From NCBI GenBank assembly GCA_021813945.1, contig JAKAJD010000001.1, positions 496,412 to 560,411 on the forward strand: a DNA stretch of 64,000 nt, given 5' to 3'. This document shows positions 32,686 through 57,103 of this stretch, in pieces. The notes below the pieces were generated by a model that did not search any database, was not told where the DNA came from, and saw only the letters and a program-made list of their open reading frames with translations. The stretch is from a bacterium. Lineage in GTDB: Bacteria > Patescibacteriota > Microgenomatia > Curtissbacterales > GWA2-41-24. A program made the translations under genes and the position numbers. The stretch's first letter is position 1. Every line of letters begins with the position of its first letter.

Positions 32686-34602
32686 ATGCCTCGAAAAATT
32701 AACCTTACGATTCTGGCTCTTTTTGTGCTTCTTGGAATCTACTTTGCCAGAGTCAGAACCGTTGGCGACACAGCGGATACATACTGGCACTTAGCAGTTG
32801 GCCGGCAAGTTTGGCAGCAAAAAGAAATCCCAAAAACTGATGATTTTATCTATGGCAAAGCCGACACACACTACACCTCAACAGAATGGCTTTCCGGCTT
32901 AATCTTTTTTTTATTTGATGATTTTTTTGGATTTAAAAGTTTAGTTATCCTAAGGATCGCCTGTGCCCTTAGTACAATCTTTTTTCTTTACAAAACAGTC
33001 GAAGTTTTTACAAAAGACGAAAAAATCCAGTTCGCCGTTCTGGCAGCAACCGGCTACCCTCTTGCCGTTCGCCTTTTCGACCGGCCTGAGAACTTCAGCT
33101 ATTTATTTGTTGCTCTTATTAACTACGTTTGTTTTAAATATTTCTTCAAAGGAATTTTTAGCAAGTCCTTTTATGCACTTCCCGCAATTTTTCTTACCTG
33201 GCCCAGCATTCATGCATTTGTGGTTTACGGTTACGCCTTATTATCTTTTTGGATAACAATTTTTGTTTTTGAGCACTTCCGCAAAGTGAAATCCCGGCCA
33301 AACTTTATGTCGGTCATTTCGATTTGGTTAGTATCAACAATAGCAATCTTAATCCAAGCAAAAAGATTTTTCTTCTTCTTGGAGTTGAAAAAGCTAACAA
33401 GCTTTAGCGTCAACGAATGGGGTTCCCTAACAGATAGAATTTTTCTTTCAAGGGGCTATCAATTTTTTCAGCAAATGCCGGTTGAAGTTTATTTTTACGT
33501 GTTTTTATCCATAGTTGGACTCATTCTTGCAATTCACTGGATAGCTAAAAAGAGAGAAAATAATCTATCGCTTTATTTGATTTTTGCCACCTATTTTGCC
33601 ATCAGTCTGACACCAATCAGATATTATCGACTAATCCCACTCGTCCTTTTAACAGTTGCCCCGCTAATAATATTCTTCCTAAAAGACTTTAAAAACCAAG
33701 TATTTGACATCACTGTTAAACTTGTCGCCGGATTTTTGATAATTTTGACACTTGGTTCAATTTTCGTCGGCTACACAATTGGCTCGAAGTCGTACTTCAA
33801 AGCATCATTTGACGAAAGTGGCAAAACAATCGGCGTTAAATCGCGCCTTTGGGGTCAAGTTTTCCCCCAACAAACTTCAACTGTTATCGAAGGTTATCTC
33901 ACAACAAAACATCTTTACACGTTCGACTGGTGGAGCAACTTTTTCATTTGGCGAAATCCGACCGTTCAAACATACAGTGATGTCATGTATCAATATCGAA
34001 CTCCACAGGATTTCCAAGATGATCAAATAATCGGTTCCGGTCAAGAAGGCTGGGATAGGTTAGTTGAAAAATACAATATCGACACGGTTGTAAACAGCCA
34101 GTTTGCAGCGCCAAAAGGAAACAACACACCTGTATATAAACTATCCAACTGGAAGCTAGTTTATGTCGACAACATTTCTGCACTCTGGGCAAGAAACGAT
34201 GTTATAAAAACCTTGCCTGTTGATCTTTCAGCTTTAAGTTTGGAAATCCAGGAACCTTTGAAATTCAAACCGGAAAACAAAAATAGGGCGATTGACCAGC
34301 TTCAAAATCTGCTAAAATTTTATCCAAAAAACGATTTCGCCAGAGGACAGCTCATCCAAAACTACATAGACGAGTCAAAAATAACCGAGGCAAAAAGCCT
34401 GGCGGAGGAATCAAGAAAACTTATGCCTAATGATCCGACTTTCCCACTGTATCTTTCTGCAGTTTACGCATCATCCGGAAACTGCCAGCAAGCTTCCCAA
34501 TTTTCCAAAGAATCCTTGCAAAAAAGCTATAACGATTTCAATTTCCAAGCACTCGAAGCAATCATCCTGTCAAGTTGTCAAAGTCAAAATCAGTCACTTT
34601 GA
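32686..34602 (+). CDS. large polytopic membrane protein with C-terminal TPR-like region (putative GT-C-type glycosyltransferase)
   Basis: More than 10 predicted TM helices in the N-terminal ~400 aa; soluble C-terminal domain with TPR-like helices. Confidence 0.4.
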   Translation: MPRKINLTILALFVLLGIYFARVRTVGDTADTYWHLAVGRQVWQQKEIPKTDDFIYGKADTHYTSTEWLSGLIFFLFDDFFGFKSLVILRIACALSTIFFLYKTVEVFTKDEKIQFAVLAATGYPLAVRLFDRPENFSYLFVALINYVCFKYFFKGIFSKSFYALPAIFLTWPSIHAFVVYGYALLSFWITIFVFEHFRKVKSRPNFMSVISIWLVSTIAILIQAKRFFFFLELKKLTSFSVNEWGSLTDRIFLSRGYQFFQQMPVEVYFYVFLSIVGLILAIHWIAKKRENNLSLYLIFATYFAISLTPIRYYRLIPLVLLTVAPLIIFFLKDFKNQVFDITVKLVAGFLIILTLGSIFVGYTIGSKSYFKASFDESGKTIGVKSRLWGQVFPQQTSTVIEGYLTTKHLYTFDWWSNFFIWRNPTVQTYSDVMYQYRTPQDFQDDQIIGSGQEGWDRLVEKYNIDTVVNSQFAAPKGNNTPVYKLSNWKLVYVDNISALWARNDVIKTLPVDLSALSLEIQEPLKFKPENKNRAIDQLQNLLKFYPKNDFARGQLIQNYIDESKITEAKSLAEESRKLMPNDPTFPLYLSAVYASSGNCQQASQFSKESLQKSYNDFNFQALEAIILSSCQSQNQSL

Positions 34603-34653: not shown

Positions 34654-34726
34654 GCCGAGATAGCTCAGTGGTAGAGCAACCGTTTTGTAAACGGTAGGTC
34701 CGGGGTTCGACCCCCCGTCTCGGCTC
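34654..34726 (+). tRNA. tRNA-Thr (anticodon UGU)
   Basis: Cloverleaf: acceptor gccgaga/tctcggc, D-arm gctc-agtggtag-agc, anticodon stem accgt/acggt with loop ttTGTaa, T-arm ggggttcgacccc. Confidence 0.85.
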
Positions 34727-34751
34727 AAAAGCTCGTTCTCTATTCCGATGC

Positions 34752-34836
34752 GCTGGGATGGCAGAGTGGACAATTGCAACGGTCTGTAAAACCGTCGTCC
34801 GAAAGGACTCCGAAGGTTCGAATCCTTCTCCCAGCA
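34752..34836 (+). tRNA. tRNA-Tyr (anticodon GUA), long variable arm
   Basis: Acceptor gctggga/tcccagc, anticodon stem acggt/accgt with loop ctGTAaa, long variable arm, T-arm gaagg-ttcgaat-ccttc. Confidence 0.85.
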
Positions 34837-34840
34837 CACA

Positions 34841-34912
34841 GCCGGCGTGGCTCAGTGGCAGAGCGTTTCCTTGGTAAGGAAAAGGTCATGGGTCCGATTC
34901 CCATCGCCGGCT
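34841..34912 (+). tRNA. tRNA-Thr (anticodon GGU)
   Basis: Acceptor gccggcg/cgccggc, anticodon stem tttcc/ggaaa with loop ttGGTaa, T-arm atggg-tccgatt-cccat. Together these match the Thr-Tyr-(Gly)-Thr cluster order seen upstream of tufB in many bacteria. Confidence 0.85.
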
Positions 34913-35008
34913 CAACTTCGGAGTCGTTGTTTATTCACAACTTATCTCCTAATGCCAAACCGATAAACCCCTATTATTTTTAGTTTGTTATAATAGCCTT
35001 AAAGGCTA

Positions 35009-36388
35009 ATGGATCCACAAGCTCCCCCTCCTCAATACCCTCCAGTTTCACCGCCAACACAAGTTCCAAATCCAGCCTCGCCTGCTATAAACATAGTCCA
35101 GGAACCGCCTCAAAAATCCCCAAAAAAGCTTTTTTTAATTATCCTGGCTGGCCTAGTCATCACACTAGTAACAGCATCTACCAGCGTTTACTTTTTCTAT
35201 TACCTACCACGCAAAAACACAACCGAAAACATCAGCTCTGTCTCGAAGTCGGTTTCCGATTTTAAAACATCTGTTTCTCAAATTAATTCATTGCTTCAGG
35301 ACATATCAAACCTTTCTCTTGGCAAAAAAGGCTCAGATTCAACATCGCTTCAAGTTTCGGGGCTAGCAATCCACCCTCAAATCGCCAGTTTAGAGCAAAA
35401 CACCAAAGTTCTCGGGGCAAAAACGTCACCCCAACTTGGACCAATCGAAACAGACGTCTCCAGTCTCAAAAAGATGATTATCTCCGAAAACCCATTTAAA
35501 AAACATCAAAACTCCAAGGTAGCAGGGGCAACAACTACTTCCGAAAGCGAAAGTGTAATAAATTCACGCAAAATCAAAGACGATTCCAGCAAAGCTCTTG
35601 ATACGGTAGACAGCGGCACTAAAAACCTGAAGGAGGTAACCGCAAAAACTGCAAACTTGAAAGGTGTTCCAAATAAAAGTAAAGCGATTTTAGAAAACAT
35701 TACTTATAAAGAGAGCGCAAACAGCTATTTAGAAGAAGCAGGAAAAATCTCAAATTACTACAACACCTTAAGCAGTACTACAATTGCACTAGACAGTAAA
35801 ATTAGATCGTACCAAGCTCTGATCGCAGAAGCCTCTGCGGAAATTGGGGCTGCCTTAACTACAAAGAATCTCTATGATGCAAAAGACGCTGTCGGCGCAG
35901 CACAAATATCACTTAACAAGGCAAATCAGTTAGCGCAAGATATAAAATCCCTTGGGTCAACGCTTGAGTCTACAGGTCAAACCAGTATGCCAAACGCTGC
36001 CCAAAAGTACCAACAGCACAACCTTAAAGTTGTCTCCTCAGTCACTGACTATTTCACAAGCGAGACAGAAATCCTGAAAAAATTCTCGACAACGCTGGAC
36101 GGTAGTATCACTACTGCCCAGCAAAGGCCGCTCAGCACAGACGAAGTTAACACCCTTTCTCAAGCATGGAACACTGCAATTTCCCAAGAAAATTTAGCTG
36201 ACGCAAACTTTACTACAGAACTGACAGCCCTATTAGGTGAAGAGATTAACCTCGCAGCCTCTTTCTGGCAAGATAATGGTATTTTAAGATTAAGCACAAG
36301 TGTTAATGGTGACATCGATACTTATCAAAAAGCGCTAAACGACCTAAAAACTGCCAATAAAATTCCATTCCAGAAAACCACCAACTAA
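35009..36388 (+). CDS. hypothetical membrane-anchored protein with Pro-rich N-terminus
   Basis: PPQYPPVSPPTQVPNPASP, then one TM, then a long polar extracellular region. Confidence 0.45.
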   Translation: MDPQAPPPQYPPVSPPTQVPNPASPAINIVQEPPQKSPKKLFLIILAGLVITLVTASTSVYFFYYLPRKNTTENISSVSKSVSDFKTSVSQINSLLQDISNLSLGKKGSDSTSLQVSGLAIHPQIASLEQNTKVLGAKTSPQLGPIETDVSSLKKMIISENPFKKHQNSKVAGATTTSESESVINSRKIKDDSSKALDTVDSGTKNLKEVTAKTANLKGVPNKSKAILENITYKESANSYLEEAGKISNYYNTLSSTTIALDSKIRSYQALIAEASAEIGAALTTKNLYDAKDAVGAAQISLNKANQLAQDIKSLGSTLESTGQTSMPNAAQKYQQHNLKVVSSVTDYFTSETEILKKFSTTLDGSITTAQQRPLSTDEVNTLSQAWNTAISQENLADANFTTELTALLGEEINLAASFWQDNGILRLSTSVNGDIDTYQKALNDLKTANKIPFQKTTN

Positions 36389-36430
36389 AGTAATTAACAT
36401 CCAAAGGGCTTTCCTGCTAAAATTATACTA

Positions 36431-36805
36431 ATGCCCAAACGACCAGGATTCACCTTAATCGAAGTCCTGCTTTCTTCATTTTTCTTTATCGCTCTTATCA
36501 CCATCCTCCTTTCTTCCTCCGGAACACTTCTAAATACCAGAAAAACTAATCTGGAAACTGTAGCTGCCAAAATCGCCAGCAAACAAATAGAAGACTTAAG
36601 AAATATGGCTTACACCTCAGTCGCCTCAGGACCGATTACAGATACCGATCTCTCAAAGTTACCCCAAGGGGCAGCAAACAAAACTGTCACAAACTACCAA
36701 TCCAGTGCAGACATAAAAGACGTATTAATAACAGTCACCTGGACAGAAAACAGTGCAGCAAAACAACTTAAAATGGAAACACTAATTTATAAAAACGGCC
36801 TTTAA
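36431..36805 (+). CDS. type IV pilin / pseudopilin (prepilin N-terminal methylation motif)
   Basis: KRPGFTLIEVLLSSFF: class III signal G|FTLIE followed by a hydrophobic helix. Confidence 0.75.
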   Translation: MPKRPGFTLIEVLLSSFFFIALITILLSSSGTLLNTRKTNLETVAAKIASKQIEDLRNMAYTSVASGPITDTDLSKLPQGAANKTVTNYQSSADIKDVLITVTWTENSAAKQLKMETLIYKNGL

Positions 36806-36807
36806 TC

Positions 36808-37461
36808 ATGGCAATTAAAAAGCATAGAAAAAGACTCGCGGATCTTCTAAGGGGTATGTCGGTTGTCGAAATAACAGCGGCAATTGGCATTATTGGAATT
36901 ATATCCATAATGGTGGTTTCCATTTATTTTGCCCACTTCCGGCTTTTTTCCAACCAAAGTAAAACCATAGATGTTGCCAATGAAACAAGAATCGCCTTAG
37001 ACGCCATTACAAACCAAATCCGGGAATCTTCCGCAGTTGTTTCGAGCTGCCCGGTAGGTTCGCCATACAATGGATGCGGCGGTGCAACCACCTCCTCAAC
37101 TGCCACCTCCTGTAATAACACAACTAGCTACTCAGCAAAAGTCGTTTTGCAGTTGTGGCCGCTTGACTCCAATGGCAACCCAACCGATCCTGGTAGCTCA
37201 AATTACGATTACGTTGTCATAAAAAAAGACGACTTGGAAAATACCAAACTCAAAATGATAACCTACCCCTCAAGTATAAGTTCAAGAAAACCCTCGTCAT
37301 TAATACTTTCCGACGAGATATCCTGCCTCAGCTTTACTTTTGATAACGCTGACCCAACTCAAGCATCCGAAGTCACCGCAGGGATTACTAACACCACAAC
37401 CCAATTTGGCAAAACTTACATACAGGCACAAGAAACAAAAGCAGTGATTAGAAATAAATGA
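36808..37461 (+). CDS. minor pilin-like protein
   Basis: LLRGMSVVEITAAIGIIGIISIMVV: prepilin-like N-terminus (G|MSVVE). Confidence 0.5.
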   Translation: MAIKKHRKRLADLLRGMSVVEITAAIGIIGIISIMVVSIYFAHFRLFSNQSKTIDVANETRIALDAITNQIRESSAVVSSCPVGSPYNGCGGATTSSTATSCNNTTSYSAKVVLQLWPLDSNGNPTDPGSSNYDYVVIKKDDLENTKLKMITYPSSISSRKPSSLILSDEISCLSFTFDNADPTQASEVTAGITNTTTQFGKTYIQAQETKAVIRNK

Positions 37462-38678
37462 AAAAAAGCATACTAGTAACAAACTTAAGAGGCCAGGTTT
37501 TGATAATAGCCATCATTTTTATGGCAGTAGTTTTGATACTTTCCGCTTCCATGCTTTCCAAAGTCGGCAGTTACCTTCGCTTCGGTGCAATTTCCGTCCA
37601 AGGCGAACAGGCAATCGAGCTTGCAGAAGCAGGAGTTGATAACGCAGTTTGGCAATTAAACTTGAATGCTGGAGCGTGCCCCCCAGCGACATGCAGCAAC
37701 GAAATCGCAATTGGCACAGCCGGAACATTCAAGGTAGCAATCCAAGATAAGTCATCAAATTTAAAAACCATAACCTCAACTGGGTATATTCCAAATTCCA
37801 CAAACCCAAAACAGAAAAGAACAATAAAAGTAGATATTGGAATAAACAATGAGATAGTCGAATTCAACTACGCCGTTCAGGTGGGTGACGGTGGTGTTGA
37901 TCTTGGGCAAGGTGCTCAAATAACAGGCGCTGGAGGAACACCCGGAAATGTCTATTCTAATGGAAACATAACAGGAAACCAAAGTTCAGTAATAACAGGC
38001 GATGCTTGGGCAGTTGGAACAATTTCAAATCCTCCAACCGTACAAGGTACGCGACACCCCGGGTCGCCACAAACAGACATGCCACAATTTAATTATCAGC
38101 AGTGGATAGATGAAGCAACAAACGGCGGCACTATTAATTGCACTCTAACACCTTCTCAGTGTAACCTCTCGGGATTCGCAACTATAGGCAGAAGAATGTA
38201 TATTAACGGTGACTTAAATTTTGCTCAAGGCACAATTGTCACTATGACAGGACCAGTTTATATCCGGGACGGGAACTTAGACATGGGTCAAGACACCCGC
38301 CTTGATCTGGATAGCAGCTTCGGATCCACATCAGTAGCGCTTGTGCTGAATGGAACAGTCAACGTAGGGCAAAACTCATCAATAAACCCTACAAGTGCAA
38401 GTCCTAAGGGTTACATCCTGGTTGCAACACCATCAAACGCAAACCCTGCAATTAGAATCAGCCAATCTGGGGCGAATGCCATCTTCTATGCGCTAAACGG
38501 CGAAGTTAGACTCATTCAATCATCACACGCCACTGCTGTTATTGCCAAAAGATTAACTCTTGGCCAATCAGTAATTTTGACTTATGACGAAGGTTTAGCA
38601 TCAACAAATATTTCAGGCGGCCCGGGTGGCTCCTGGCAAATTAAAAAGGGCACATATAAACAAACTGTTTCACCGTGA
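37458..38678 (+). CDS. PilX-like / minor pilin assembly protein (N-terminal TM anchor)
   Basis: N-terminal hydrophobic helix LIIAIIFMAVVLILSASMLS typical of PilX-like proteins; sits in the pilin cluster. Confidence 0.4.
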   Translation: MKKSILVTNLRGQVLIIAIIFMAVVLILSASMLSKVGSYLRFGAISVQGEQAIELAEAGVDNAVWQLNLNAGACPPATCSNEIAIGTAGTFKVAIQDKSSNLKTITSTGYIPNSTNPKQKRTIKVDIGINNEIVEFNYAVQVGDGGVDLGQGAQITGAGGTPGNVYSNGNITGNQSSVITGDAWAVGTISNPPTVQGTRHPGSPQTDMPQFNYQQWIDEATNGGTINCTLTPSQCNLSGFATIGRRMYINGDLNFAQGTIVTMTGPVYIRDGNLDMGQDTRLDLDSSFGSTSVALVLNGTVNVGQNSSINPTSASPKGYILVATPSNANPAIRISQSGANAIFYALNGEVRLIQSSHATAVIAKRLTLGQSVILTYDEGLASTNISGGPGGSWQIKKGTYKQTVSP

Positions 38679-40864
38679 AATCAAGAGTTTCAATAAAAAT
38701 CTTCACAGTATCAGTAATCACCACCATTCTGCTTCTTCTTAAAATTAGCCCAGTCTTCGCATTAAACTACAATTTAGTGCCAAACTCGTCGTTTGAAGAA
38801 GGTGAAACCTTTCCTACCGGGTGGAATATCGTAACAAGTGACTTTTGCAACATTCCCGCATCAAATTATCAGTCTTCTGTCGAATGGAGCTCCTCTAGAT
38901 CAAGTACTGGTTCTAAATCCGTAGGCATTACAAACGTTTACCTCCCAAACCAGGGAGACTACACCTCCGTAAAAATAGCATCAGAATTCATCCTGATAAA
39001 CCCTATACAAATCTACAACTTAAGTGCCTTAATCCAGGGAACGACTGGGAACAAAGGCATAAAACCAGAAATCGACGTATGCTTCTACGATAAAGACGGA
39101 AACAAAACCGGAATAAATAGTGTCACGTCTCAGTATCCGCCTGACGATAAAACATGGTATGGAATTTCGTTTGGAGGATTAAAACTGAGCTACTTTCCAC
39201 CAAACACAACAAAAATAAAAGTTGGGCTATCAGCAAACTGCAGTTACCAATTTCTACCGCCAGGGGCAGCACAAGATTGTTCTGGTTCCATCTGGTTAGA
39301 CGACATTAGTCTTCTTCCCCTGGGCAATATTACTATGCATAAATTTGAAGATTTAAACAAAAACGGATTGCAGGACATAAACGAACCAAATCTTCAATAT
39401 TGGGAAATGTCCGTCTATAAAGAAGCAAACTGTGACAGCTCAAAAGAAATCGGCGGGGCATCAACCGACGCAAGCGGTAATGCAATATTTAAGAACACTC
39501 CATTCGGGGACTACTCCGTTAAGGAAACATTCTACTACGAAGACTTTAATCCTCCACCACATCTCGTAGATGCCACAAAAGAAGGTTGGTATACTACAAC
39601 TCCACTTTGCCAAAACGTCACCCTAGATTCTACTTCCGGTGCAACAGTCAACATTGGCAACTTCCATGGTCCCTCTTTTCCCTATCTCAGCCAACTTGAC
39701 CCGGCTTGGAAAGACCTAACGTACGATCATGCATCCACCTCAAACCCGTTTTTTTGCGGAACGACAATTGGCGGTTGTGGCTGTGCCATAACTTCGGCTG
39801 CAATGCTCCTAAATTACTATGGTGTTTCGAGAACTCCAAGCGGCAATCCTACTAATCCCCAAACCTTAAACGATTGGCTAAATCAAAATCAGGGTTATGC
39901 TTTTGGAGCCTTAAAGTGGAATTCAGTCGCTGCATATTCTGTTAGGGTAAACGAAAACTTCGGCACTCAAAAAATCCGCTTCGTAGGTGTTGGAAGCGGC
40001 AATGATTTTGATACCCTCAATACCGATCTTGCAAACTCTAAGCCCGAAATTTTAGAAGAGCCGGGTCATTTTATCGTCGCAAACGCCAAGCAAGACCCAA
40101 CATATCAAATCGCAGATCCAGCGTACGAAAACAAAAAGACACTTGCCACCTATTCCAATAATTTCTTAAGCTCAAGAAGATATGAAAAAACAAATACAGA
40201 CCTAAGCTCCATCTATATTTCAAGCCCGACTCCAAACGACTTATTCATTACGGATTCCCTCGGAAGATCGACTGGCAAAAATCCCGAAACAGGCGAAATT
40301 CTAACTCAAATACCTAATTCTTATTATTTTGTTGAACCGTCCTTTACCAATCAAACAGATCCTAATTCTCAGGTTCCAAACACCGGTGTAACCACACTTG
40401 TTATCATCAATCCAGAGGAGGGTAGCTTTACTTTGGATTCCAAATCCGGACCGATTGATGTTTCAGCTTATGACACTCTAGGCAATATCCAAGTCAAAAA
40501 TTTCGAAACTGTGGCGCCAGACACATTCGAACTTAACTACTCACCGAATACTGGATCGACTTTTAAAGTTTTTCAAAAAGTTTCTATCGACTTAAAACCT
40601 CAAAACATAAATAAAGGAAATGGAGTTTTTCCAATAGTCATAAAATCGGACGACAACTTTAATGTCCAAGATATAGATTTTCAGTCAATACAACTTTCGC
40701 CTTCTGGTATTTCGCCGATTAAGTTTCCGCTTCTGGTCTCAAACGGAAAAGATAATAAAAAAGACCTTCAAATTTTCTTTCTCGCCTCACAAATTTCCAG
40801 AAACAATAATCTTTGCTTAACCGGCACCACAATAAGCGGAATCCAATTTAAGGGTTGTACTTAA
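38675..40864 (+). CDS. large secreted protein with Cna-B/SdrD-like domain and C39-like (papain-fold) cysteine peptidase domain
   Basis: Signal peptide; MHKFEDLNKNGLQDINEP (SD-repeat B/Cna B-like); FFCGTTIGGCGCAITSAAMLLNYYG resembles the peptidase C39/C39_2 active-site Cys motif. Confidence 0.5.
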   Translation: MKSRVSIKIFTVSVITTILLLLKISPVFALNYNLVPNSSFEEGETFPTGWNIVTSDFCNIPASNYQSSVEWSSSRSSTGSKSVGITNVYLPNQGDYTSVKIASEFILINPIQIYNLSALIQGTTGNKGIKPEIDVCFYDKDGNKTGINSVTSQYPPDDKTWYGISFGGLKLSYFPPNTTKIKVGLSANCSYQFLPPGAAQDCSGSIWLDDISLLPLGNITMHKFEDLNKNGLQDINEPNLQYWEMSVYKEANCDSSKEIGGASTDASGNAIFKNTPFGDYSVKETFYYEDFNPPPHLVDATKEGWYTTTPLCQNVTLDSTSGATVNIGNFHGPSFPYLSQLDPAWKDLTYDHASTSNPFFCGTTIGGCGCAITSAAMLLNYYGVSRTPSGNPTNPQTLNDWLNQNQGYAFGALKWNSVAAYSVRVNENFGTQKIRFVGVGSGNDFDTLNTDLANSKPEILEEPGHFIVANAKQDPTYQIADPAYENKKTLATYSNNFLSSRRYEKTNTDLSSIYISSPTPNDLFITDSLGRSTGKNPETGEILTQIPNSYYFVEPSFTNQTDPNSQVPNTGVTTLVIINPEEGSFTLDSKSGPIDVSAYDTLGNIQVKNFETVAPDTFELNYSPNTGSTFKVFQKVSIDLKPQNINKGNGVFPIVIKSDDNFNVQDIDFQSIQLSPSGISPIKFPLLVSNGKDNKKDLQIFFLASQISRNNNLCLTGTTISGIQFKGCT

Positions 40865-40904
40865 CCCTTGCCAAATTTGCGCCTGATCCGCTAAACTTAC
40901 CTCT

Positions 40905-41093
40905 ATGGCAAAGTCAAAAAGAGTCTTGTTCCAGCTGCAATGCACTGTTTGTAAATCGAAAAATTACACAAACAGCAAAAATCCGGACAATATCGCGCTA
41001 AAGCGCAAAAGCCAGGACACCAAAATTAACCTCAAAAAGTTCTGTAAGCGTTGCAGAAAAGTTACCGAGCATAAAGAGGTCAAGATAGCTTAA
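40905..41093 (+). CDS. rpmG: 50S ribosomal protein L33
   Basis: Zinc-ribbon CTVCKS...CKRC and KVTEHKEVK; typical L33 length. Confidence 0.88.
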   Translation: MAKSKRVLFQLQCTVCKSKNYTNSKNPDNIALKRKSQDTKINLKKFCKRCRKVTEHKEVKIA

Positions 41094-41138
41094 GGTCAGG
41101 TCTTAGGCTAAAAACTAATCCAACAAAGGCCTGACCTT
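41092..41138. repeat. ~47-bp composite palindromic element (terminator-like) starting at the rpmG stop codon
   Basis: aaggtcaggtcttaggctaaaaactaatccaacaaaggcctgacctt. Near-identical copies at 61676-61721 (same orientation) and 62751-62786 (inverted). Confidence 0.85.
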
Positions 41139-41187
41139 TTCGCGAACTCCCTTGCCTCAAAGACCCAAAACCCTTAATCTATAAATA

Positions 41188-43701
41188 GTGGCAAAACATA
41201 AGCTCCTCAAAACCTGGTCACTGGTTACTGGAAACTGGAAACGTAGAGTCGGTTTCACTCTTATTGAAGTCATGGTCGTTATTGCCATAATCGGGACGCT
41301 GGCCAGCATAAGCACTTTCGCGCTTGGCAAAGCAAGAACTAAAGGGAGCGATTCTAAAAGAAAGGCGGATCTAAAAGCCATCCAAACTGCTGCAGTTGCT
41401 TATTATCAGGACTTCAACCAGTTCCCTCCAGGCACAACACCAGGCAACGTATTTTCTTCGGACACCGGCGCTAACTGGATTCCCGGAATATCAGACTACA
41501 TCAAAAAACTCCCCAAAGACCCGCTCCAATCCGGTATCTTATATTACCTGGCCAATCTTATTAAAAATCCTGTTCAAAATGGCGAAAAATTCTTAGCCGG
41601 ATTATTTTCCAAACCAGCTCAAACAACAAAAACCATACCCCAAGTTGCAGCAGCAACAACAGTAACTTTAAGGCCTAACGGCGTTGGCTCGAGTACTCAG
41701 TGGACTCCGTTAACCGCACCAAATTATTCCCAGGTAAAAGAAGCCACCGCGGACAATGATGCAACTTACGTAAAATCTAATGTTATCAATCAAATGGATC
41801 TCTATAAAATCGACCCAAACTCAATCAGCGGTACTATTACAGGTATTACGGTCAAAGTTGTAACTCGCGCCAACGCAGGCCAAGACCCGATGAGCTATAT
41901 TTACATCCGCACAGGCAGCACCAACTATGCAAGCAGCCCGGGCTTCCAAACCGGCATAGGCGGAACTTACGTGACTTCCAGCTATACCTGGGCAACAAAC
42001 CCTAAAACCGGTGTGGCATGGACGCCTGCAGATATTACCGCTCTTGAGATCGGCATACTAAATAGTTGGACTGAATACCGCTTCTTGACCCAAGAATATG
42101 TGGAGGTAACATACACTCCGACAGGCACGTCTGTAAACATCAATGCAAACACAACAGACAACACCATCAGGTTTTATGCTAGTGGATACTATCCACCCGA
42201 CCCCAGCGGGGGCTGCGATATTGCCCCTCCTGCTGGATCAACCTATTCTCTAACTGGTCAATACTATACCGGCGGCGGTTATTACAAATACAGAAGCTAT
42301 CTCGCCTTTGACACTTCTTCAATCCCAGCTGGCTCAACAATAAACTCGGTAACCTTGACACAAACGGTGTACGTTAAAAGTTTGGGAACTAATTTTAACC
42401 TCCTTGCCTTAAATTATAACTGGGGGCCTACAGTCGACTGCACAAAATGGGGAGGTACACCACCCACAGCCCCACAAGTTGGCAGCATTGCCACAACAAG
42501 CCTTCCTGCCGTAGGATCTTCCTTCACAATGTCCCTGGCAAACTCTGTTGTTAACGCTGGAGGATCAACCTACATGATGCTTCTAAGTGACAGGGACGCA
42601 GCCAACACAATCCCAACAGGGCTGGAAGCCTTTGGCGCATACAGCGCAGAATCGGCCACCCCGCCTCAAATAAGTATCAATTATACGCCGCCAGCCACGC
42701 CGATAGTCACAACAACTGCCGCAACAGGTCTCAGCGGATCTGGCGCAACCTTAAATGGAACTGCAAACCCAAATGGTTCTGCAACAACAGGATGGTTCCG
42801 CTACAGCACCACAAGCCCTGGAACCTGCAATGACACATTCGGCACAAGAGCACCCTCTACTGGAGGCAACGCTCTCGGATCAGGCACAACCGCGGCACCC
42901 TATTCCCAAACAATTGGCAGCCTTACAGCATCAACAACTTATTACTTCTGTGCTCTTGCTTCAAATGCAAGCGGCACAGGTTATGGCACAGTGCTTTCCT
43001 TTACAACTTCTGCCTCAGCACCAGTCGGGACAATTTCCGCAGGGGCCCCAACAATTCCAAGCGGCAGCAGCACATCAATCACCTGGAGTACAACACCTAG
43101 CGGCACGGGGTGCGCCGTTTCCCCGGGTGGAGGAAGCGGGCCCAGCGGCACCTTATCCACCGGGCCACTAACGTCTACAACAACATACACCTTACATTGC
43201 ACCGACGCGGGCTTCATAGATAAAACTGCAACAGTGACAGTCAGCGGCGCTTCTTCTTCTGCCAACATCAAAGCCAATGGATCCGACGGTCCATATTCAG
43301 CAAATGTTGGCGATTCGATAAACATAACCTGGACCTCATCAAATACCACCAGCTGCACAGTAACAGGGGGGCCTGGCGGCTCAGGCACATCCGGTTCATT
43401 TTCGTGGACTGTACCAGGCACTCCGACTCCTCCAACTAGCTACTCCTTCTCACTTTCCTGCACAGGTGGTACTGCCAGCGACAGTGTCACCGTTAATGTA
43501 ACCTCTTTGGGAGTTGCAACCTGTCAAAACAAGAAGAATATTTATTGCTATATAGTCAATACAGACAGAAGTTCGTTTGTTATTTGGGCCCAACTCGACA
43601 ACACATCTGATCCGCAAATTTCTACCAATCCTGGTGCACTTTGCACACTTTCCCCACCGGACCCCAACTTCAACTACTGCGTCGAGTCCTCGTCGCTTTA
43701 G
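41188..43701 (+). CDS. giant type IV pilin-like protein (837 aa): prepilin N-terminus plus large Ser/Thr/Gly-rich beta-repeat C-terminal region
   Basis: RRVGFTLIEVMVVIAIIGTLASI: canonical G|FTLIE prepilin cleavage/methylation motif and pilin alpha-helix. The C-terminal 780 aa is rich in T/S/G with repeated modules (GSGATLNGTANPNGSATTGWFRYSTT...). The two plus/minus ORFs listed inside it are alternate-frame artefacts. Confidence 0.7.
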   Translation: MAKHKLLKTWSLVTGNWKRRVGFTLIEVMVVIAIIGTLASISTFALGKARTKGSDSKRKADLKAIQTAAVAYYQDFNQFPPGTTPGNVFSSDTGANWIPGISDYIKKLPKDPLQSGILYYLANLIKNPVQNGEKFLAGLFSKPAQTTKTIPQVAAATTVTLRPNGVGSSTQWTPLTAPNYSQVKEATADNDATYVKSNVINQMDLYKIDPNSISGTITGITVKVVTRANAGQDPMSYIYIRTGSTNYASSPGFQTGIGGTYVTSSYTWATNPKTGVAWTPADITALEIGILNSWTEYRFLTQEYVEVTYTPTGTSVNINANTTDNTIRFYASGYYPPDPSGGCDIAPPAGSTYSLTGQYYTGGGYYKYRSYLAFDTSSIPAGSTINSVTLTQTVYVKSLGTNFNLLALNYNWGPTVDCTKWGGTPPTAPQVGSIATTSLPAVGSSFTMSLANSVVNAGGSTYMMLLSDRDAANTIPTGLEAFGAYSAESATPPQISINYTPPATPIVTTTAATGLSGSGATLNGTANPNGSATTGWFRYSTTSPGTCNDTFGTRAPSTGGNALGSGTTAAPYSQTIGSLTASTTYYFCALASNASGTGYGTVLSFTTSASAPVGTISAGAPTIPSGSSTSITWSTTPSGTGCAVSPGGGSGPSGTLSTGPLTSTTTYTLHCTDAGFIDKTATVTVSGASSSANIKANGSDGPYSANVGDSINITWTSSNTTSCTVTGGPGGSGTSGSFSWTVPGTPTPPTSYSFSLSCTGGTASDSVTVNVTSLGVATCQNKKNIYCYIVNTDRSSFVIWAQLDNTSDPQISTNPGALCTLSPPDPNFNYCVESSSL

Positions 43702-43705
43702 CAAA

Positions 43706-43772
43706 AAGGTCAGGCCTTAGGCAAAAAGGTCAGGCCTTAAAGTACGCCAGTTCCAAGAAAAAGGCCTGACCT
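43706..43772. repeat. palindromic repeat cluster (3 units) downstream of the giant pilin gene
   Basis: aaggtcaggcctt x2 (43706-18, 43726-38) and the inverted aaggcctgacct (43761-72). Confidence 0.8.
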
Positions 43773-43838
43773 CAAACTATGCCATCTTTTCGCTCTTTAC
43801 CGAGTTTTATCCGATTTTATATAATATTGACTGAATTT

Positions 43839-43909
43839 ACGGGCGTCGTTCAGTGGTAGGACCGCAGTCTCCAAAACTGCCGACGAGGGTTCGATTCCTT
43901 CCGCCCGTG
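43839..43909 (+). tRNA. tRNA-Trp (anticodon CCA)
   Basis: Acceptor acgggcg/cgcccgt, D-arm gttc-agtggtag-gac, anticodon stem gcagt/actgc with loop ctCCAaa, T-arm gaggg-ttcgatt-ccttc. Confidence 0.8.
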
Positions 43910-44118
43910 CAGGTTCGTATATAGCGAAGCTATACTAGACCGAAGGTCTATATCCTCTAGGCCCTGCAGGAAAGTTCGCATATATGAGGGGTGACTCATA
44001 TACTAATTGAAAATTATTTCCTTCCACCCGTGCAGAGTTCCTCCCCACCCATAATCCCATAGTTTGCATTAACCGCTTGCTCATTGTTATAATACGTGAC
44101 TAATTTCAGCTAAGGTAT

Positions 44119-45231: not shown

Positions 45232-46308
45232 TTAGTGATGAGCCTTTAAACCTAAAGCTTGTACACGTTCAGCGTAATCTAAGTAAGAACCAACAACATC
45301 GGCATCAAATTCTAATGCTTTGTCAAAATTTGTTCCCTGCAATTCGTCGGCAAATTCGCCCAAAACGTCCTGGGGAAAAACATTGTTTTTAATTAAATGC
45401 CAGCGTATTGTCCGTAAATTCTCGTCTGCTTGGTAGTTTGCAATTTGCCTTGCCTCATCAGTTGCGCTTTCCGGCGTGACCACTATATCGTACAACCTCA
45501 ATCCATAGTGGTTTTCCAAATATCTCCTTGCAAAACCCATGTAATTGGCAAGACCCATATGTTGAACTTGCAAAGCTGCTGATATTGACCCCGTATCCAA
45601 GATGTCCTTCGAAAATTTCTCTCCTTCTTTTTTAATCATCAAATCAGGATCTTTCCTTTCATCTATTTGGTCATTTACTGTCATCCCGTTATCCTCTGCA
45701 ACTGACCTAATATACTGGAAAAGCCCAACAGCATCGGCGTCTGAAGTTGCATTAGGATCCCCTTTAGACTCCCAAAGTAGCATTCCCATTAAAACCTGGA
45801 ATTTTGCCTCGTCGTGGCCGGAAGCTTCCCAAAGCTTGTCTGCATATTCTTTGTTAACATGGCGCACAATGTCGTCATTGAGGCTTGCGTTTACACGATC
45901 CCTTGCATCGACAAGTTTTATAAAAGCATCTTCTCTGGCCTTTTCATTTTGGCTCGGAAAGACCGTATCGAAAACGGAAACAGGCTTTGCCTCAACTGGC
46001 TCTACTAACACCCCTTGAGCCGCCTTTTTGGTGCTCGCAAAAAAATCCTGGCCCGCGCTTGCAACGCCACCTGCAACTTCCTTAACTAAGTCTGGGTGTT
46101 TTGATGCTTGTCCGGCACCCAATCCAATAGCCAAAGTCCCAACAGTAGCACCAATGCCAAGTGCCAAACTATTGGATTTTTTATCGTTCTTCTTTGCTAA
46201 CCCACTTTGTGAACTCGGCCTATTTGACTTGCCTGATCTTCTCTTATAACGAGCTAAATTTTCTCTGGAATGTTCTGCTAGTCTAGTCTCACCCGCCATA
46301 TATACCAA
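45232..46308 (-). CDS. membrane-anchored lytic transglycosylase (SLT domain) protein
   Basis: ESKGDPNATSDADAVGLFQYIRSVAEDNG matches the SLT catalytic motif ES...P.A.S.AGA.GLMQ; N-terminal TM. Confidence 0.6.
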   Translation of the reverse strand: MVYMAGETRLAEHSRENLARYKRRSGKSNRPSSQSGLAKKNDKKSNSLALGIGATVGTLAIGLGAGQASKHPDLVKEVAGGVASAGQDFFASTKKAAQGVLVEPVEAKPVSVFDTVFPSQNEKAREDAFIKLVDARDRVNASLNDDIVRHVNKEYADKLWEASGHDEAKFQVLMGMLLWESKGDPNATSDADAVGLFQYIRSVAEDNGMTVNDQIDERKDPDLMIKKEGEKFSKDILDTGSISAALQVQHMGLANYMGFARRYLENHYGLRLYDIVVTPESATDEARQIANYQADENLRTIRWHLIKNNVFPQDVLGEFADELQGTNFDKALEFDADVVGSYLDYAERVQALGLKAHH

Positions 46309-52884: not shown

Positions 52885-53020
52885 ATTAGGTAAGTGTAAT
52901 TATCTCTCTATCAGTTAACCAAAATCAACAACATTTATTTCCAATTCTTAATTCTTGCTTCTTGATTAAAAATTCTGTTATCATACTCGCTAACCTTGAC
53001 AATTGAAGGGAGATTTCTTA

Positions 53021-53215
53021 GTGGCATTTAATCCGTTAACATACGTCAAAGAATCGAAAGCTGAACTCGAAAAAGTTATCTGGCCTACCCGCCAGGAAAC
53101 TTTACGATTAACTGTAATAGTTCTTTTAGTTGCAGTTGTGGTTGGCGCTTATGTTGCTGGCCTTGACACAATTTTTACTAAAATAACCGAAAGCCTTCTT
53201 AAGGTACACAAGTAA
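53021..53215 (+). CDS. secE: preprotein translocase subunit SecE
   Basis: [40 protein letters not shown]. Start placed at GTG 53021, with GGGAG 10 nt upstream. Stop overlaps the nusG ATG by 1 nt. Confidence 0.8.
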
Positions 53216-54126
53216 TGGACGACCAGGACGACAAGAAAATACAAGAAGATATAGCTGAAGAGGTTCCACAGGTTGTGGAAGAAAACAGCGCGGAAGAAAC
53301 AATGCCAACGGAGGATCAGTCGGAACCGTTGGAGGATCAAGCAACTTTTGCCCAGCCAGAAGACCAAGAGCCTTCTGAAAATCAGCCTTCTGGGGAAGAT
53401 CAGCCACAGTCAGAAGAAGAATCGCAAGAACTAGCATCTGAGCCAGAATCACCAAACGACCGAAACGCCGAAGAACAAAAAACCGCAGAAGAGCCAGTTG
53501 CAGACGAAGCTTCCGAATCAGTGGATCAAGCTGAAGAAAACCCGGAGGAATCTGAAATCCCAACCCCTGAAGAAAAACCGGCGCCCCAAAAACCCAAAAC
53601 CCCTGGTGCCAATTGGTACGTAGTCCACACCTACTCGGGTCATGAGTCAAAAGTCGCCGCTACCCTAAAACAAAGGGTGGACTCGCAAAAACTTTCGGAC
53701 AAAATCTTAGACATACTTGTCCCTACACAAGAAAAGATCGAAATAAAAGAAGGTAAGAAAAACACAGTAAAAGAGAAAATCTTCCCCGGCTATCTTCTAG
53801 TTCATATGATTTTGGATGATGCCACCTGGCTTGCCGTCAGAACAACACCTGGAATAACTGGTTTTATTGGAACTTCCAACAAACCAACCCCTCTTCCAGA
53901 AGACGAGGTTGAAACCATCAAACGCTTCATGAGCATGGAAGCGCCGAAATTTAAAGCCGCATTTTCAGTTGGTGAGGCAGTCAAAATTACCGACGGCCCA
54001 TTTTCGGAATTTTTGGGGTCGATTTCTGAAATCGACGAAGAAAAAGGCAAACTCAAAGTTTTGGTTTCGATTTTTGGACGAGAAACACCAGTCGAATTGG
54101 ATTTCCTCCAAGTTGCTAAGCTTTAA
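53215..54126 (+). CDS. nusG: transcription termination/antitermination factor NusG with a ~130-aa acidic N-terminal extension
   Basis: NGN domain [14 protein letters not shown]...[10 protein letters not shown] and C-terminal KOW ([22 protein letters not shown]). Residues 1-130 are D/E/Q/P-rich low complexity. Confidence 0.9.
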
Positions 54127-54157
54127 TACCAGTCAGCTATCATGGAATTCGTTGCAT

Positions 54158-54203
54158 AAGGGCAGGCCTTTGTGCTGCATAATCAGGGTTAAGGCCTGCC
54201 CTT
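54158..54203. repeat. inverted palindromic repeat pair (terminator-like) 30 nt after the nusG stop
   Basis: aagggcaggcctt (54158-70) ... aaggcctgccctt (54191-203). Confidence 0.8.
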
Positions 54204-54269
54204 AACTGAGAAGGAGGCCTCAAGAACAAGGCGGTTTTTTAACTTTTTCGAATCGTCTAAAATACATAT

Positions 54270-55184
54270 ATGCCCTTACCTCTTTATCGAAAAATTCGAG
54301 TCCCATTAATTCTAATTTCGATCTTCGTGATCCTACTCTACATCTCCACAAAAAACACCAAAAGTTACATCAACCCTTATTTTTTTGGGGCAAAAAACAA
54401 TTTCAGTGCCCTATTTTCAGATAAACCCAACAAGCAAATTCAATCTTATCTCGAAAATCAAATTTCAAATTTTCCCGGAAGTTACGGCGTCTTTATAAAA
54501 GACCTTAAACATCAAACAATTTACTCTGTAAACGAAAACCAAACATTCCAAACTGCCAGCATCTACAAGCTTGCTGTACTCTACAAAACCTATGATGCCA
54601 TTTCCAAAGGAGAAATTAAAAAAGACGATGTTTTATCTGAAGACGAATACACCTTAGATCAAGTCCTGGCACCGGATGACGAAAACACTGCAAACGGAAT
54701 CGTAACTTACAAAGTTTCAGAAGCTCTAAATTCAATGATTACAGTTTCCGACAACTATGCCGCATTGCTTTTAGCACATAAATTAGGCTGGGATAATATA
54801 GACAGCTTCCTTCACCAGCAAAATATCTCCGGTTTTGATCTTTCCGCTCCCCAACAACCAGTTGCCAGTCCGAGGGCCGTTTCTCAAATACTGGAAAAAA
54901 TTCATAACGGTACTGCCGTTGACGCCCAAAGCTCTCAAGAAATGAGAGATTTACTTTTAGATCAGACCATAAACGACAAAATTCCCAAATATTTGCCTCC
55001 AAGAACCAAGATTGCCCACAAAACCGGCGAGCTGGACAATATCCGAAACGATGCAGCCATAATTTATGGCAGAAACAGCACATACATTTTTGTTATCCTT
55101 TCCGAAGCGCCTGTACCCGAAGAGGCAACAGAAAACATCGCAAATCTTTCTAAGAATATGTACGAAAAGCTCGAGGCAAACTAG
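54270..55184 (+). CDS. class A beta-lactamase-like serine hydrolase (secreted)
   Basis: N-terminal anchor; S-x-x-K (TASIYKLA), SDN-like (SDNYA) and KTG (HKTGELDN) motifs. Confidence 0.7.
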   Translation: MPLPLYRKIRVPLILISIFVILLYISTKNTKSYINPYFFGAKNNFSALFSDKPNKQIQSYLENQISNFPGSYGVFIKDLKHQTIYSVNENQTFQTASIYKLAVLYKTYDAISKGEIKKDDVLSEDEYTLDQVLAPDDENTANGIVTYKVSEALNSMITVSDNYAALLLAHKLGWDNIDSFLHQQNISGFDLSAPQQPVASPRAVSQILEKIHNGTAVDAQSSQEMRDLLLDQTINDKIPKYLPPRTKIAHKTGELDNIRNDAAIIYGRNSTYIFVILSEAPVPEEATENIANLSKNMYEKLEAN

Positions 55185-55282
55185 AACTTGTTATTGCTTG
55201 AAATAATCCCGCGATTTAGCGTATACTTCATATCTGTCGACACGTTAGTAGTTAAACTTAAAACGTTAGTCGTCTTTTTAAA

Positions 55283-55708
55283 ATGGCCAAAAAGATAAAA
55301 GCAATTGTTAAACTAAATGTCAAAGGCGGTCAGGCAACCGCTGCTCCACCTGTGGGTCCTGCTCTTTCCCAGCACGGCTTGCCGATTATGGATTTTGTCA
55401 AAAGTTTCAACGACAAAACCAAAGATCAGCAAGGTACCGTTCTGCCGGTTGTTGTCACAATTTATGAAGATCGCACATTTTCCTTTTTAGTTAAAAAACC
55501 GCCTGTTGCCATTCTTATCAAAAAAACCTTAAACCTGGAAAAAGCTGCTAAAACTCCCGGCAAACAAACTGTTGCCAAGCTTGGGAAAGCTCAAGCCAGA
55601 AAAATAGCGGAAGAAAAAATGGAAGATTTAAATACCAAAGATATCGAAGCCGCAATTAGAATAGTTGAAGGCACAGCCCGCAGCATGGGTGTGGAGGTAA
55701 CCGAGTAA
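55283..55708 (+). CDS. rplK: 50S ribosomal protein L11
   Basis: KIKAIVKLNVKGGQATAAPPVGPALSQHGLPIMDFVKSFN is canonical L11. Confidence 0.95.
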   Translation: MAKKIKAIVKLNVKGGQATAAPPVGPALSQHGLPIMDFVKSFNDKTKDQQGTVLPVVVTIYEDRTFSFLVKKPPVAILIKKTLNLEKAAKTPGKQTVAKLGKAQARKIAEEKMEDLNTKDIEAAIRIVEGTARSMGVEVTE

Positions 55709-55735
55709 AGGAGTCCCCATTTATGGGGTTAAGTC

Positions 55736-56668: not shown

Positions 56669-56836
56669 ATTTCGGCAAAATCAACTCCTTGACAGGAACG
56701 TTTGCATCTGATAATTTTCCCCTGCTATTTCCCAAAACTGCCTTTTTATTCAAACTATCATGCCGGCAAAAACCCTAATTAATATTCAAAGTTGGATCAA
56801 GCTTCGCTTGACGTTAAAAAGGAGGTGATAAAAAGA

Positions 56837-56929: not shown

Positions 56930-56943
56930 TCTGGAAGTTTCAT

Positions 56944-56980: not shown

Positions 56981-56997
56981 GTTGTAAAAACCTGGTT

Positions 56998-57080: not shown

Positions 57081-57103
57081 GAGTATGAAGTAGGTGATCT
57101 GTA

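Follow-up and report, generated by a model that had tools for sequence, protein, structure and literature searches.

What role could a giant type IV pilin play that is encoded alongside a secreted cysteine peptidase and a set of small pilin-like proteins? The question is raised by a locus at positions 36431-43701 of a 64-kb stretch of contig JAKAJD010000001.1 (the whole stretch is referred to as the window) from a Microgenomates-type bacterium that belongs to the candidate phyla radiation (CPR; Patescibacteria). The locus comprises genes B, C, D, E, rpmG and G, all of which are present as open reading frames (ORFs) on the + strand. A preliminary description had recognized a type IV pilin locus in which rpmG is embedded and which encodes, besides a giant pilin, three small pilin-like proteins and one secreted protein with Cna-B- and C39-like features; ORFs, motifs and profile matches agree with this picture, and the embedding of rpmG is kept in at least five genomes. 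On balance, the region appears to be the accessory (tip/priming) gene cluster of a type IV pilus, and this cluster probably serves to grip a host or substrate surface. Among the candidate means by which CPR bacteria locate their hosts and hold on to them, type IV pili rank first, and adhesive pilus parts are known only for one cultivated Saccharibacterium. In a different lineage without cultivated members, the cluster is a concrete and conserved candidate for the pilus end that recognizes the host or substrate.

Prepilin signal and split head of the giant pilin

Gene G (41188-43701, +) encodes an intact prepilin of 837 amino acids (aa) and begins with a GTG codon, which is the sole start codon upstream of the cleavage site. 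The resulting leader of 22 aa (MAKHKLLKTWSLVTGNWKRRVG|; 41188..41253, +) ends in the motif RRVG|FTLIE, in which cleavage, presumably by the prepilin peptidase PilD, would take place after G22 and the glutamate at position 5 of the mature protein (Glu5) is present. G matches the prepilin models N_methyl (PF07963; 6.9e-7, 29.0 bits, cut-off 21.2) and TIGR02532 (25.9 bits, cut-off 16.3), and shows similarity to GspG (1.7e-10) and Myxococcus PilA (1.6e-9), each below its cut-off. Solved pilin structures in the PDB align their mature residue 1 at F23 of G. The leaders of G orthologues are 28-31 aa long.

The mature protein consists of three parts. Residues 23-116 (41254..41535, +) span alpha1, which carries Glu5, and the alpha-beta loop as far as LPKDPLQSG, residues 117-779 (41536..43524, +) form an insertion, and residues 780-837 with the stop codon (43525..43701, +; NKKNIYCYIVNTDRSSFVIWAQLDNTSDPQ...FNYCVESSSL) make up the pilin head's second half. 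This C-terminal block (…IYCYIVNTDRSSFVIWAQLDNTSDPQ…FNYCVESSSL) resembles the beta-sheet end of a GspG-type pilin. Judged by its sequence, G is an ordinary GspG/PilA-type pilin of ~175 aa with ~660 residues inserted into its head, after the LPKDPLQSG loop and ahead of the first beta strand. When residues 1-116 were joined to residues 774-837 and this spliced query was run against a large protein database, 29 proteins were found, nearly all of which are ordinary pilins of 128-291 aa. The best matches, pilins of 136-239 aa, cover 75-90% of the query, and the 239-aa pilin P0014 is contiguous across the G junction (…LPKDPRQSAAYLYIVNASRTYFILWAQLDRSNDPQ…FNYCLEPPQ). In a Pfam scan, the spliced sequence matched T2SSG at 0.069 and over profile positions 7-71 only. 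A custom profile built from 13 ordinary pilins matches G in two separate pieces, with profile positions 7-110 aligned to residues 18-116 (113.8 bits, 7.6e-36) and positions 111-163 aligned to residues 780-833 (17.4 bits, 3.1e-6), and this split persists after the closest short pilin is dropped from the profile.

The same architecture is found in relatives of G. The C-terminal profile match is present in all 16 long relatives and is accompanied by the N-terminal match in 15 of them, the exception being P0133, which is without its N-terminus. An exhaustive search with full-length G was dominated by its Fn3-like module; filtering of the best 150 representatives by pilin motifs at both termini left about 20 proteins (439-1192 aa) with a prepilin N-terminus and a C-terminal half-head, which indicates that the split architecture is a family trait and not a one-off. 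In G orthologues, the first ~165 and last ~65 residues are conserved and the middles differ: P0002 (807 aa) and P0005 (951 aa) are joined by P0003 (745 aa) with a CARDB domain, P0004 (1036 aa) with a DUF1349/LamG-like module and P0006 (495 aa) with a Gly-rich domain.

A frameshift or fusion artefact, the former of which the preliminary description had named among the findings that would speak against a giant pilin, was rejected because the identical ORF occurs in assemblies from different samples and intact orthologues of 745-1192 aa bearing both the N- and the C-terminal parts lie on other contigs. The prepilin N-terminus proposed there likewise stands, as seen from the N_methyl and TIGR02532 matches. 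The ~780-aa C-terminal tail of repeated modules does not, and is replaced by a split head that encloses five unrelated modules. An AlphaFold2 (AF2) model of G (predicted local distance difference test, pLDDT, 70.9; predicted template modelling score, pTM, 0.37) contains an alpha1 helix at residues 25-76, a poorly defined linker at 117-156, five beta-rich modules and terminal strands at 786-790, 797-802 and 829-833. A Foldseek comparison of the whole model with the PDB returned generic beta-sandwich chains, including complement C3 and receptor ectodomains, at template modelling (TM) scores of ~0.12, a result that is uninformative on the pilin head.

The public gene call P0001 (809 aa, on a 640-kb NCBI contig) starts G at Met29 (MVVIAIIG...; window 41188-41272) and thereby lacks the leader together with mature residues 1-6, Glu5 among them; it carries no precomputed Pfam match. 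The 837-aa call exists in ENA (P0220), and the orthologue calls P0002 and L004/L005 (807-808 aa) are shortened likewise. The start at Met29 hides the prepilin signal, and members of this family are likely under-annotated. In addition, split-head pilins would be misread by surveys that count N-terminal pilins with C-terminal extra domains.

Inserted modules and linker

The insertion of G begins with a linker (residues 117-156, window 41536-41655), which is conserved and ends in PQVAA. The pattern GILxxLA…LAG[IL]F…PQVA[AG] opens the insert of most split pilins regardless of the module that follows, and could serve in head completion, as a docking site or as a processing site. It is followed by a beta-sandwich predicted by AF2 (residues 157-320), which is common to other proteins, one of them with a phage Dit C-terminal domain. 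Residues 354-497 form a DNRLRE/CBM96-like domain, which matches NF033679 over profile positions 19-163 of 164 slightly below the cut-off (6.3e-8, 32.8 bits, cut-off 34) and the Pfam family CBM96 at 0.1. CBM96 is an alginate-binding carbohydrate-binding module (CBM) (PMC9971899). The remaining modules are an Fn3-like domain (residues 498-610, window 42679-43017; AF2 pLDDT ~85-95 over residues 500-610) and two Ig-like domains (residues 611-690 and 691-779). The search of the long pilin region for Ig- and FN3-type domains that had been proposed at the outset thus yielded Fn3-like and Ig-like modules together with the DNRLRE/CBM96-like domain.

No sequence similarity between modules was detected when those of G were compared among themselves. 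Each insert module contains one Cys pair, and Gly, Ala, Ser and Thr account for 47% of G, which is the highest value in the cluster. The insert modules are shuffled between G orthologues, in which CARDB, DUF1349/LamG and Gly-rich domains are encountered. The Fn3-like module of G obtained 35,226 matches in the exhaustive representative search, and its pattern (…ATLNGTANPNG…GWFRY…TTYYFCALASN…GTVLSFTT) is among the commonest in the proteins searched; the 4389-aa protein P0073 contains 41 matched stretches. The G+C content of the window reaches 0.50 at 42001-44000 compared with ~0.42 elsewhere, which coincides with the Gly/Ala/Ser/Thr-rich modules of G. Two long ORFs overlapping G (42755-43171, +; 42981-43421, -) are spurious products of this high G+C content and not genes.

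The small pilin-like proteins B, C and D

Three genes at the start of the cluster encode small pilin-like proteins, which are separated by a 2-nt gap (B/C) or overlap by 4 nt (C/D); D overlaps E by a further 4 nt. In a six-frame scan of the 64 kb, class III motifs with Glu5 were found only in B, C and G, apart from one false match inside dprA. Gene B (36431-36805, +; 124 aa, prepilin-type) carries the motif MPKRPG|FTLIE, with predicted cleavage after G6 and Glu at +5. All of its profile matches remain below the cut-offs, including N_methyl (0.0073, 16.3 bits, cut-off 21.2), the GspI model TIGR01707 (3.6e-4, 21 bits, cut-off 44) and the competence models ComGE (1.5e-3), ComGD (8.9e-3) and ComGF (0.049). 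B orthologues are 52-85% identical in a four-sequence alignment, and B-like ORFs occupy the same position in L003, L004/L007, L006 and L012.

Gene C (36808-37461, +; 217 aa, prepilin-type) contains the motif LLRG|MSVVE, with predicted cleavage after G16, Glu5 present and four Cys residues. C itself showed no match to prepilin, GspJ or PilW models in the profile search. Its six orthologues are 41-72% identical; N_methyl is matched by two of the six (9.9e-5), NF007848 ('prepilin peptidase-dependent protein') by three (0.0027), and the orthologue in L012 begins with KKG|FTLVE. Gene D (37458-38678, +; 406 aa, PilX/GspK-like) has the membrane anchor NLRG|QVLIIAIIF without Glu5, followed by an AEAG motif and a Gly/Asn-rich region. 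D matches DUF7305 (PF23981) above the cut-off (7.7e-8) and shows weak similarity to GspK (0.03, 13.8 bits, cut-off 130) and to the tapirin N-terminus (0.012). Its six orthologues are 47-72% identical.

The DUF7305 region of D is probably beta-helical, and D may be of the ComZ/PilX-solenoid type. A profile search of the PDB gave a weak match of D to a hexapeptide-repeat protein (E=0.89), and no relative of D by sequence was found in the PDB. For B, C and D alike, sequence and profile searches of the PDB detected nothing past the alpha1 helix, and a literature search on DUF7305 turned up no papers. The sizes of B, C and D rise in gene order (124, 217 and 406 aa), and this arrangement is kept in eight loci. 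Among the core minor pilins, B most likely corresponds to GspI/PilV, C to GspJ/PilW and D to GspK/PilX.

The secreted peptidase E

Gene E (38675-40864, +) encodes a secreted non-pilin protein of 729 aa. It comprises a Sec signal peptide (residues ~1-29), a CBM4/16/22-like jelly roll identified by AF2 and Foldseek (~30-225), a Cna-B/SdrD-B-like domain (~226-331), a cysteine-peptidase domain of the Peptidase_C39_2 family with the triad C370/H465/D481 (~335-497) and three C-terminal beta-sandwiches (499-729). The match to Peptidase_C39_2 (PF13529; 5.8e-6, 27.4 bits, cut-off 24) is above the cut-off, and those to SdrD_B (6.3e-5, 23.6 bits, cut-off 29.7), SpaA (19.5 bits, cut-off 23.1) and the classical C39 family PF03412 (0.044, 14.1 bits, cut-off 22) are below. 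The AF2 model (pLDDT 80.8) shows a signal helix, the jelly roll, the Cna-B-like domain, an alpha/beta peptidase domain and C-terminal beta-sandwiches. In Foldseek comparisons, the jelly roll matches CBM22, CBM16 and CBM4 at target TM scores of 0.55-0.71, and the top matches of the Cna-B-like domain are SdrD (4jdz, 1.8e-7), UafA and BcpA, each at a low TM score over the whole chain. Sequence- and profile-based searches of the PDB with E gave only a single weak C39 match (E=1.2), in which the Cys of GCAITSAAM and the His and Asp of GHFIVA…DP align with the catalytic Cys and His/Asp of the C39 domain of PCAT (6mpz).

More than 25 full-length homologues of E (39-58% identity) were found, all of which contain Peptidase_C39_2, and C368, C370, H465 and D481 are invariant in the 19 sequences of E and 18 homologues. 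This conservation suggests that E is catalytically active. E is a Sec-exported stand-alone protein in which both an LPXTG motif and a membrane anchor are absent, and the cluster is without an ABC exporter. Proteins with C39_2 domains are common in Microgenomates-type genomes; pilin genes are their neighbours only beside full-length E orthologues. In catalogues of phage endolysins, Peptidase_C39_2 is included among the lytic domains (10.1101/2021.02.23.432618; 10.64898/2026.04.25.720813), and a cell-wall peptide is therefore a reasonable guess for the substrate of E. By virtue of its position, a resemblance that does not extend beyond gene order, we nominate this secreted cysteine peptidase as a candidate functional stand-in for PilY1.

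Conservation and organization of the cluster

The order B-C-D-E-rpmG-G is present in at least five genomes (window/L001, L003, L004/L007 [GCA_021813125.1], L006 and L087/L088), with L088 containing an additional second split pilin of 519 aa in tandem. In L009 and in the Curtissbacteria metagenome-assembled genome L012, B-C-D-E runs to the end of the contig. In L008, a 513-aa split pilin accompanies E, and L089 encodes B-C-D-D'-E without rpmG or G at that place. E and a split pilin co-occur in six of the seven genomes in which both flanks are readable, L089 being the exception. The E orthologue of L006 (2027-4242) is broken into ORFs of 257 and 439 aa, which reflects a frameshift/pseudogene or else a fault of the assembly.

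Across genomes, the cluster is flanked by the conserved gene order priA-def-fmt-rpmB-M50-LytR_C ... SLT-M24-RRM-NTP_transferase-secE-nusG. These housekeeping flanks show that the cluster is chromosomal and inherited vertically, and an origin as a mobile element was rejected on the same grounds. Gene A (35009-36388, 459 aa), located upstream of B, was also rejected as a member of the cluster, as it is absent from all orthologous loci; it is unrelated to the membrane protein adjoining the L089 cluster.

Upstream of B, a promoter-like site (TTAACA, 18 nt, TG-TAAAAT; 36394..36423, +) ends 8 nt before the gene. It is the best-scoring site (10/12, with an extended -10 TG) in a region whose total count of promoter-like sites is not above that of shuffled sequences, and is suggestive of the start of a B-C-D-E(-rpmG) transcription unit. 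The gene rpmG (40905-41093, +), located between E and G, encodes a Cys4-type ribosomal protein L33 of 62 aa (Ribosomal_L33 PF00471, 2.1e-12; TIGR01023, 1.8e-13). Its stop codon contains the beginning of a terminator-like hairpin (41092..41140, +) with a 13-bp stem, a 21-nt loop and a U run, which has a minimum free energy of -22 kcal/mol (z = -2.5 compared with shuffles) and was not detected by a simple terminator scan because its loop exceeds 8 nt. This hairpin may mark the end of the upstream transcription unit and set G apart.

Proposed function and alternative explanations

Pilus assembly is primed by the core minor pilins together with PilY1, which also form the tip, and Glu5 is missing from PilX (bioRxiv 10.64898/2026.02.12.705559); modular pilins are tip adhesins (PMC8179133); and minor pilins of Saccharibacteria with accessory lectin-like domains mediate host binding (PMC11623550). 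By analogy, assembly on the membrane platform would start with B, C and D, which would finally be located at the tip of the pilus, where D, in which Glu5 is missing, would act as a capping subunit with an extra domain. E, which is Sec-exported and translationally coupled to D, could ride on the tip complex or be released there, and would deliver its carbohydrate-binding jelly roll and its Cys-His-Asp peptidase, which is apparently active, to any target contacted by the pilus. G would dock into the filament via alpha1 and head; as both head halves are kept, docking should still be possible while the insert projects outward as a ligand-binding arm. The swapping of modules between orthologues is as expected for a receptor-binding protein. 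Surface glycans of the host or substrate are the ligands suggested by the CBM-type folds of both E and G and by module exchange among orthologues, which agrees with the lectin-like minor pilins known from Saccharibacteria (PMC11623550).

Several observations weigh against a tip-complex function. The global confidence of the G model is low (pTM 0.37), and the packing of its N- and C-terminal parts is deduced from sequence homology and not seen in the structure. The assignment of B, C and D to GspI, GspJ and GspK draws on sub-threshold profiles, size, order and N-terminal features. Contact of E with D is presumed, and E is without the beta-propeller typical of PilY1, as Pfam and NCBIfam searches gave no match to Neisseria_PilC/IPR008707 and AF2 shows beta-sandwiches. 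The hairpin 3' of rpmG suggests that G may be transcribed separately. Furthermore, genes for PilB, PilC, PilD, PilM and PilT are missing from the window and from the 10 kb flanking it on each side, so that processing and assembly of the pilins are assumed from general knowledge of CPR genomes.

The thick fibre of giant pilins envisaged in the preliminary description would require G to be the major subunit of a 'bottle-brush' filament coated along its whole length with binding modules. Major-type pilins are indeed the nearest relatives of the head halves of G (GspG, 1.7e-10; Myxococcus PilA, 1.6e-9; geopilin and GspG structures). The loop region that harbours the insertion is surface-exposed in T4a filaments, so that a lateral projection is sterically conceivable anywhere along the fibre. 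A motif scan identified no ordinary small pilin gene in the window, and the Gly/Ala/Ser/Thr content of 47% is a trait of abundant pilins (PMC11623550). Speaking against this role, the characterized CPR major pilins are small (PMC11623550). Opposed to a major subunit are also the location of G at the end of a minor-pilin cluster and the module shuffling among close relatives with tandem paralogues in one genome, the latter pattern being typical of adhesins and not of structural subunits. An 837-aa subunit would be costly for a genome of <1 Mb (the longest contigs with these genes are 0.64-0.98 Mb), and the same family includes ordinary pilins of 136-239 aa, which makes it probable that a small major pilin is encoded elsewhere in the genome. 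We therefore consider a thick fibre possible but unlikely; its PilE/FimU-like position in the minor-pilin operon, the shuffled modules and the tandem pair in one genome make G a likelier candidate for a low-abundance ligand-binding subunit. A competence (Com-type) pilus or pseudopilus for DNA uptake, in which B, C and D would be similar to ComGD, ComGE and ComGF and D would be a ComZ-like DNA receptor at the tip, is quite improbable. CPR bacteria depend on scavenged nucleotides, the competence-associated gene dprA (DNA-processing protein A; 12591-13673, -) is located in the window 23 kb upstream of the cluster, and D is comparable in size and layout to Thermus ComZ, a DNA-binding PilX/GspK-like pilin with an inserted beta-solenoid (PMC6561018). 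Contrastingly, the weak matches of B to ComGE, ComGD and ComGF are far below the cut-offs and no better than its GspI match, the accessory modules are carbohydrate-binding-type folds and a peptidase instead of DNA-binding domains, and comEA, comEC and comGA/GB were not found nearby.

The best weak matches of B, D and G are the pseudopilins GspI, GspK and GspG, and E is a Sec-exported multidomain enzyme encoded within the operon, both of which would also be expected of a pseudopilus similar to that of type II secretion systems (T2SS) that pushes E as cargo through the envelope, with E being a secreted enzyme and not bound to the tip. CPR bacteria are generally regarded as lacking an outer membrane and thus offer no obvious barrier for such a system. 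In addition, no secretin, GspE or GspF was found nearby, and an external arm of 660 aa is hard to square with a periplasmic piston, which renders this explanation very improbable. Slimmer still are the prospects of E as a processing enzyme that nicks G at the PQVA[AG] linker or matures other surface proteins. The triad of C39 type is kept, the linker ends in two small residues (PQVAA/PQVAG), loosely like double-glycine-type cleavage sites, and E co-occurs with split pilins in six of seven genomes. Against this, the classical C39 model PF03412 is unmatched (0.044, below the cut-off), and the cataloguing of C39_2 as an endolysin lytic domain hints at cell-wall substrates in place of leader peptides. 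Removal of prepilin leaders takes place at the cytoplasmic face of the membrane, and E, which carries a Sec signal peptide and is therefore extracytoplasmic, cannot remove them. The suggestion that the C39-like protein processes or anchors the pilins found no evidence, and the position of E after the PilX-like gene matches that of PilY1.

A more elaborate version of the accessory tip cluster, which we regard as rather unlikely in its entirety, is an enzymatic grappling hook in the form of a pilus. E would be carried by the B-C-D tip, and G would contribute an exchangeable arm for glycan recognition; with this retractile pilus, an ultrasmall episymbiont could recognize the surface polysaccharide of its host, and E would locally cut cell-wall peptides or surface proteins at the contact site. 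Possibly, E would also nick G at PQVA[AG], which would result in a two-chain pilin.

Genomic surroundings

The cluster is flanked on the left by tRNA-Thr(UGU), tRNA-Tyr and tRNA-Thr(GGU) (34654..34913, +) and on the right by tRNA-Trp(CCA) just downstream of G (43839..43910, +). The genes secE-nusG-rplKAJL follow ~9 kb beyond tRNA-Trp (window ~53000-58470), and tuf was not found in the 64-kb window. In bacterial gene order, tRNA-(tuf)-rpmG-tRNA-Trp-secE-nusG represents an ancestral block. The locus is best seen as pilin genes interleaved into this housekeeping block, rather than as rpmG recruited by pilin genes. Besides the pilin cluster, the block is stretched by ~9 kb encoding a 344-aa protein without assigned function, a lytic transglycosylase (SLT), an M24 peptidase, an ABC transporter, an RRM protein and an NTP transferase. 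The SLT protein (45232-46308, -), which is secreted or anchored, is encoded two genes downstream of G and also near the cluster in L004 and L089, and may open the cell wall for the pilus.

The window also encodes two large multi-pass membrane proteins with C-terminal tetratricopeptide (TPR) repeats (20620-22602, + and 32686-34602, +), the first of which contains a Wzy_C (O-antigen ligase-like) domain. The Wzy_C family includes pilin O-oligosaccharyltransferases, and the two TPR-bearing proteins might glycosylate Ser/Thr-rich pilins. The 638-aa TPR-bearing protein is located directly upstream of the cluster in the window and in L004, and not in L087. Furthermore, several housekeeping proteins of the window have long N-terminal regions: ribosomal protein L1 (55736-56668, 310 aa, domain 123-301) is extended by ~120 residues and L7/L12 (57877-58470, 197 aa, domain from residue 74) by ~70 residues, the Thy1 domain of ThyX (2639-4411, -; 590 aa) is confined to residues 368-558, and the domain of dCTP deaminase (5502-6743, -; 413 aa) begins at residue 225.

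Comparison with known systems

Like the fimU-pilVWXY1E operons of Pseudomonas and Myxococcus type IVa pili and the GspH-I-J-K sets of T2SS, the cluster combines a small, a mid-size and a large Glu5-less pilin with a secreted non-pilin protein and a major-like pilin in tight coupling. Unlike in those sets, no member of B-C-D-E reaches a family cut-off of the corresponding proteins, and no FimU/GspH-like gene was recognized. E differs from PilY1 in that CBM, Cna-B and C39_2 domains take the place of the beta-propeller, and rpmG is embedded in the cluster. With other Peptidase_C39_2 (PF13529) proteins, E shares the above-cut-off match, the conserved triad and secretion, from which it is set apart by the combination with a CBM-like jelly roll, a Cna-B-like domain and three beta-sandwiches and by the linkage to pilin genes. 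In our survey of the open-access literature, no description was found of a conserved operon with a CBM/Cna-B/C39_2 peptidase in the PilY1 position. In the Saccharibacterium TM7x, PilX1 and PilX2 are the largest minor pilins, with lectin-like accessory domains that are implicated in host binding, and several minor pilins resemble T2SS pseudopilins, as is the case here. The accessory domains of TM7x are located C-terminally (jelly roll, beta-propeller), and the accessible sections of that report describe neither a C39-like partner nor a split-head pilin (PMC11623550).

Modular pilins are already known and widespread, including in CPR bacteria: PilB and PilC of Streptococcus sanguinis belong to this type, and an InterPro survey (Raynaud et al. 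2021, PMC8179133) includes CPR pilins that reach 860 aa. Insertion of a domain into the fold of a pilin likewise has precedents, in GspK (alpha-domain), Thermus ComZ and cyanobacterial PilX (beta-solenoid) and Thermus PilA2 (small subdomain) (PMC6561018; bioRxiv 10.64898/2026.02.12.705559). No description of a GspG/PilA-type pilin split before the beta-sheet by an exchangeable multi-module insertion of ~660 aa was found in the open-access literature. G resembles the modular pilins in its class III signal peptide, its pilin module and its extra domains that are not specific to pili and would add a binding function, those of modular pilins being of lectin, Fn3 and CBM type. The extra module of modular pilins is attached C-terminally of a complete pilin module via a short linker (PMC8179133), whereas in G a five-module chain of ~660 aa lies inside the pilin module and the last ~58 residues complete the head. 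With GspK, ComZ and PilX, G has in common that an inserted domain modifies a pilin that retains both ends of its fold. Those proteins are tip pilins with single domains between late beta strands; G is of the GspG/PilA type and carries five exchangeable beta-sandwich modules after the alpha-beta loop and before the beta-sheet, so that its cargo is placed inside the head, in a position that may allow it to be displayed along the fibre.

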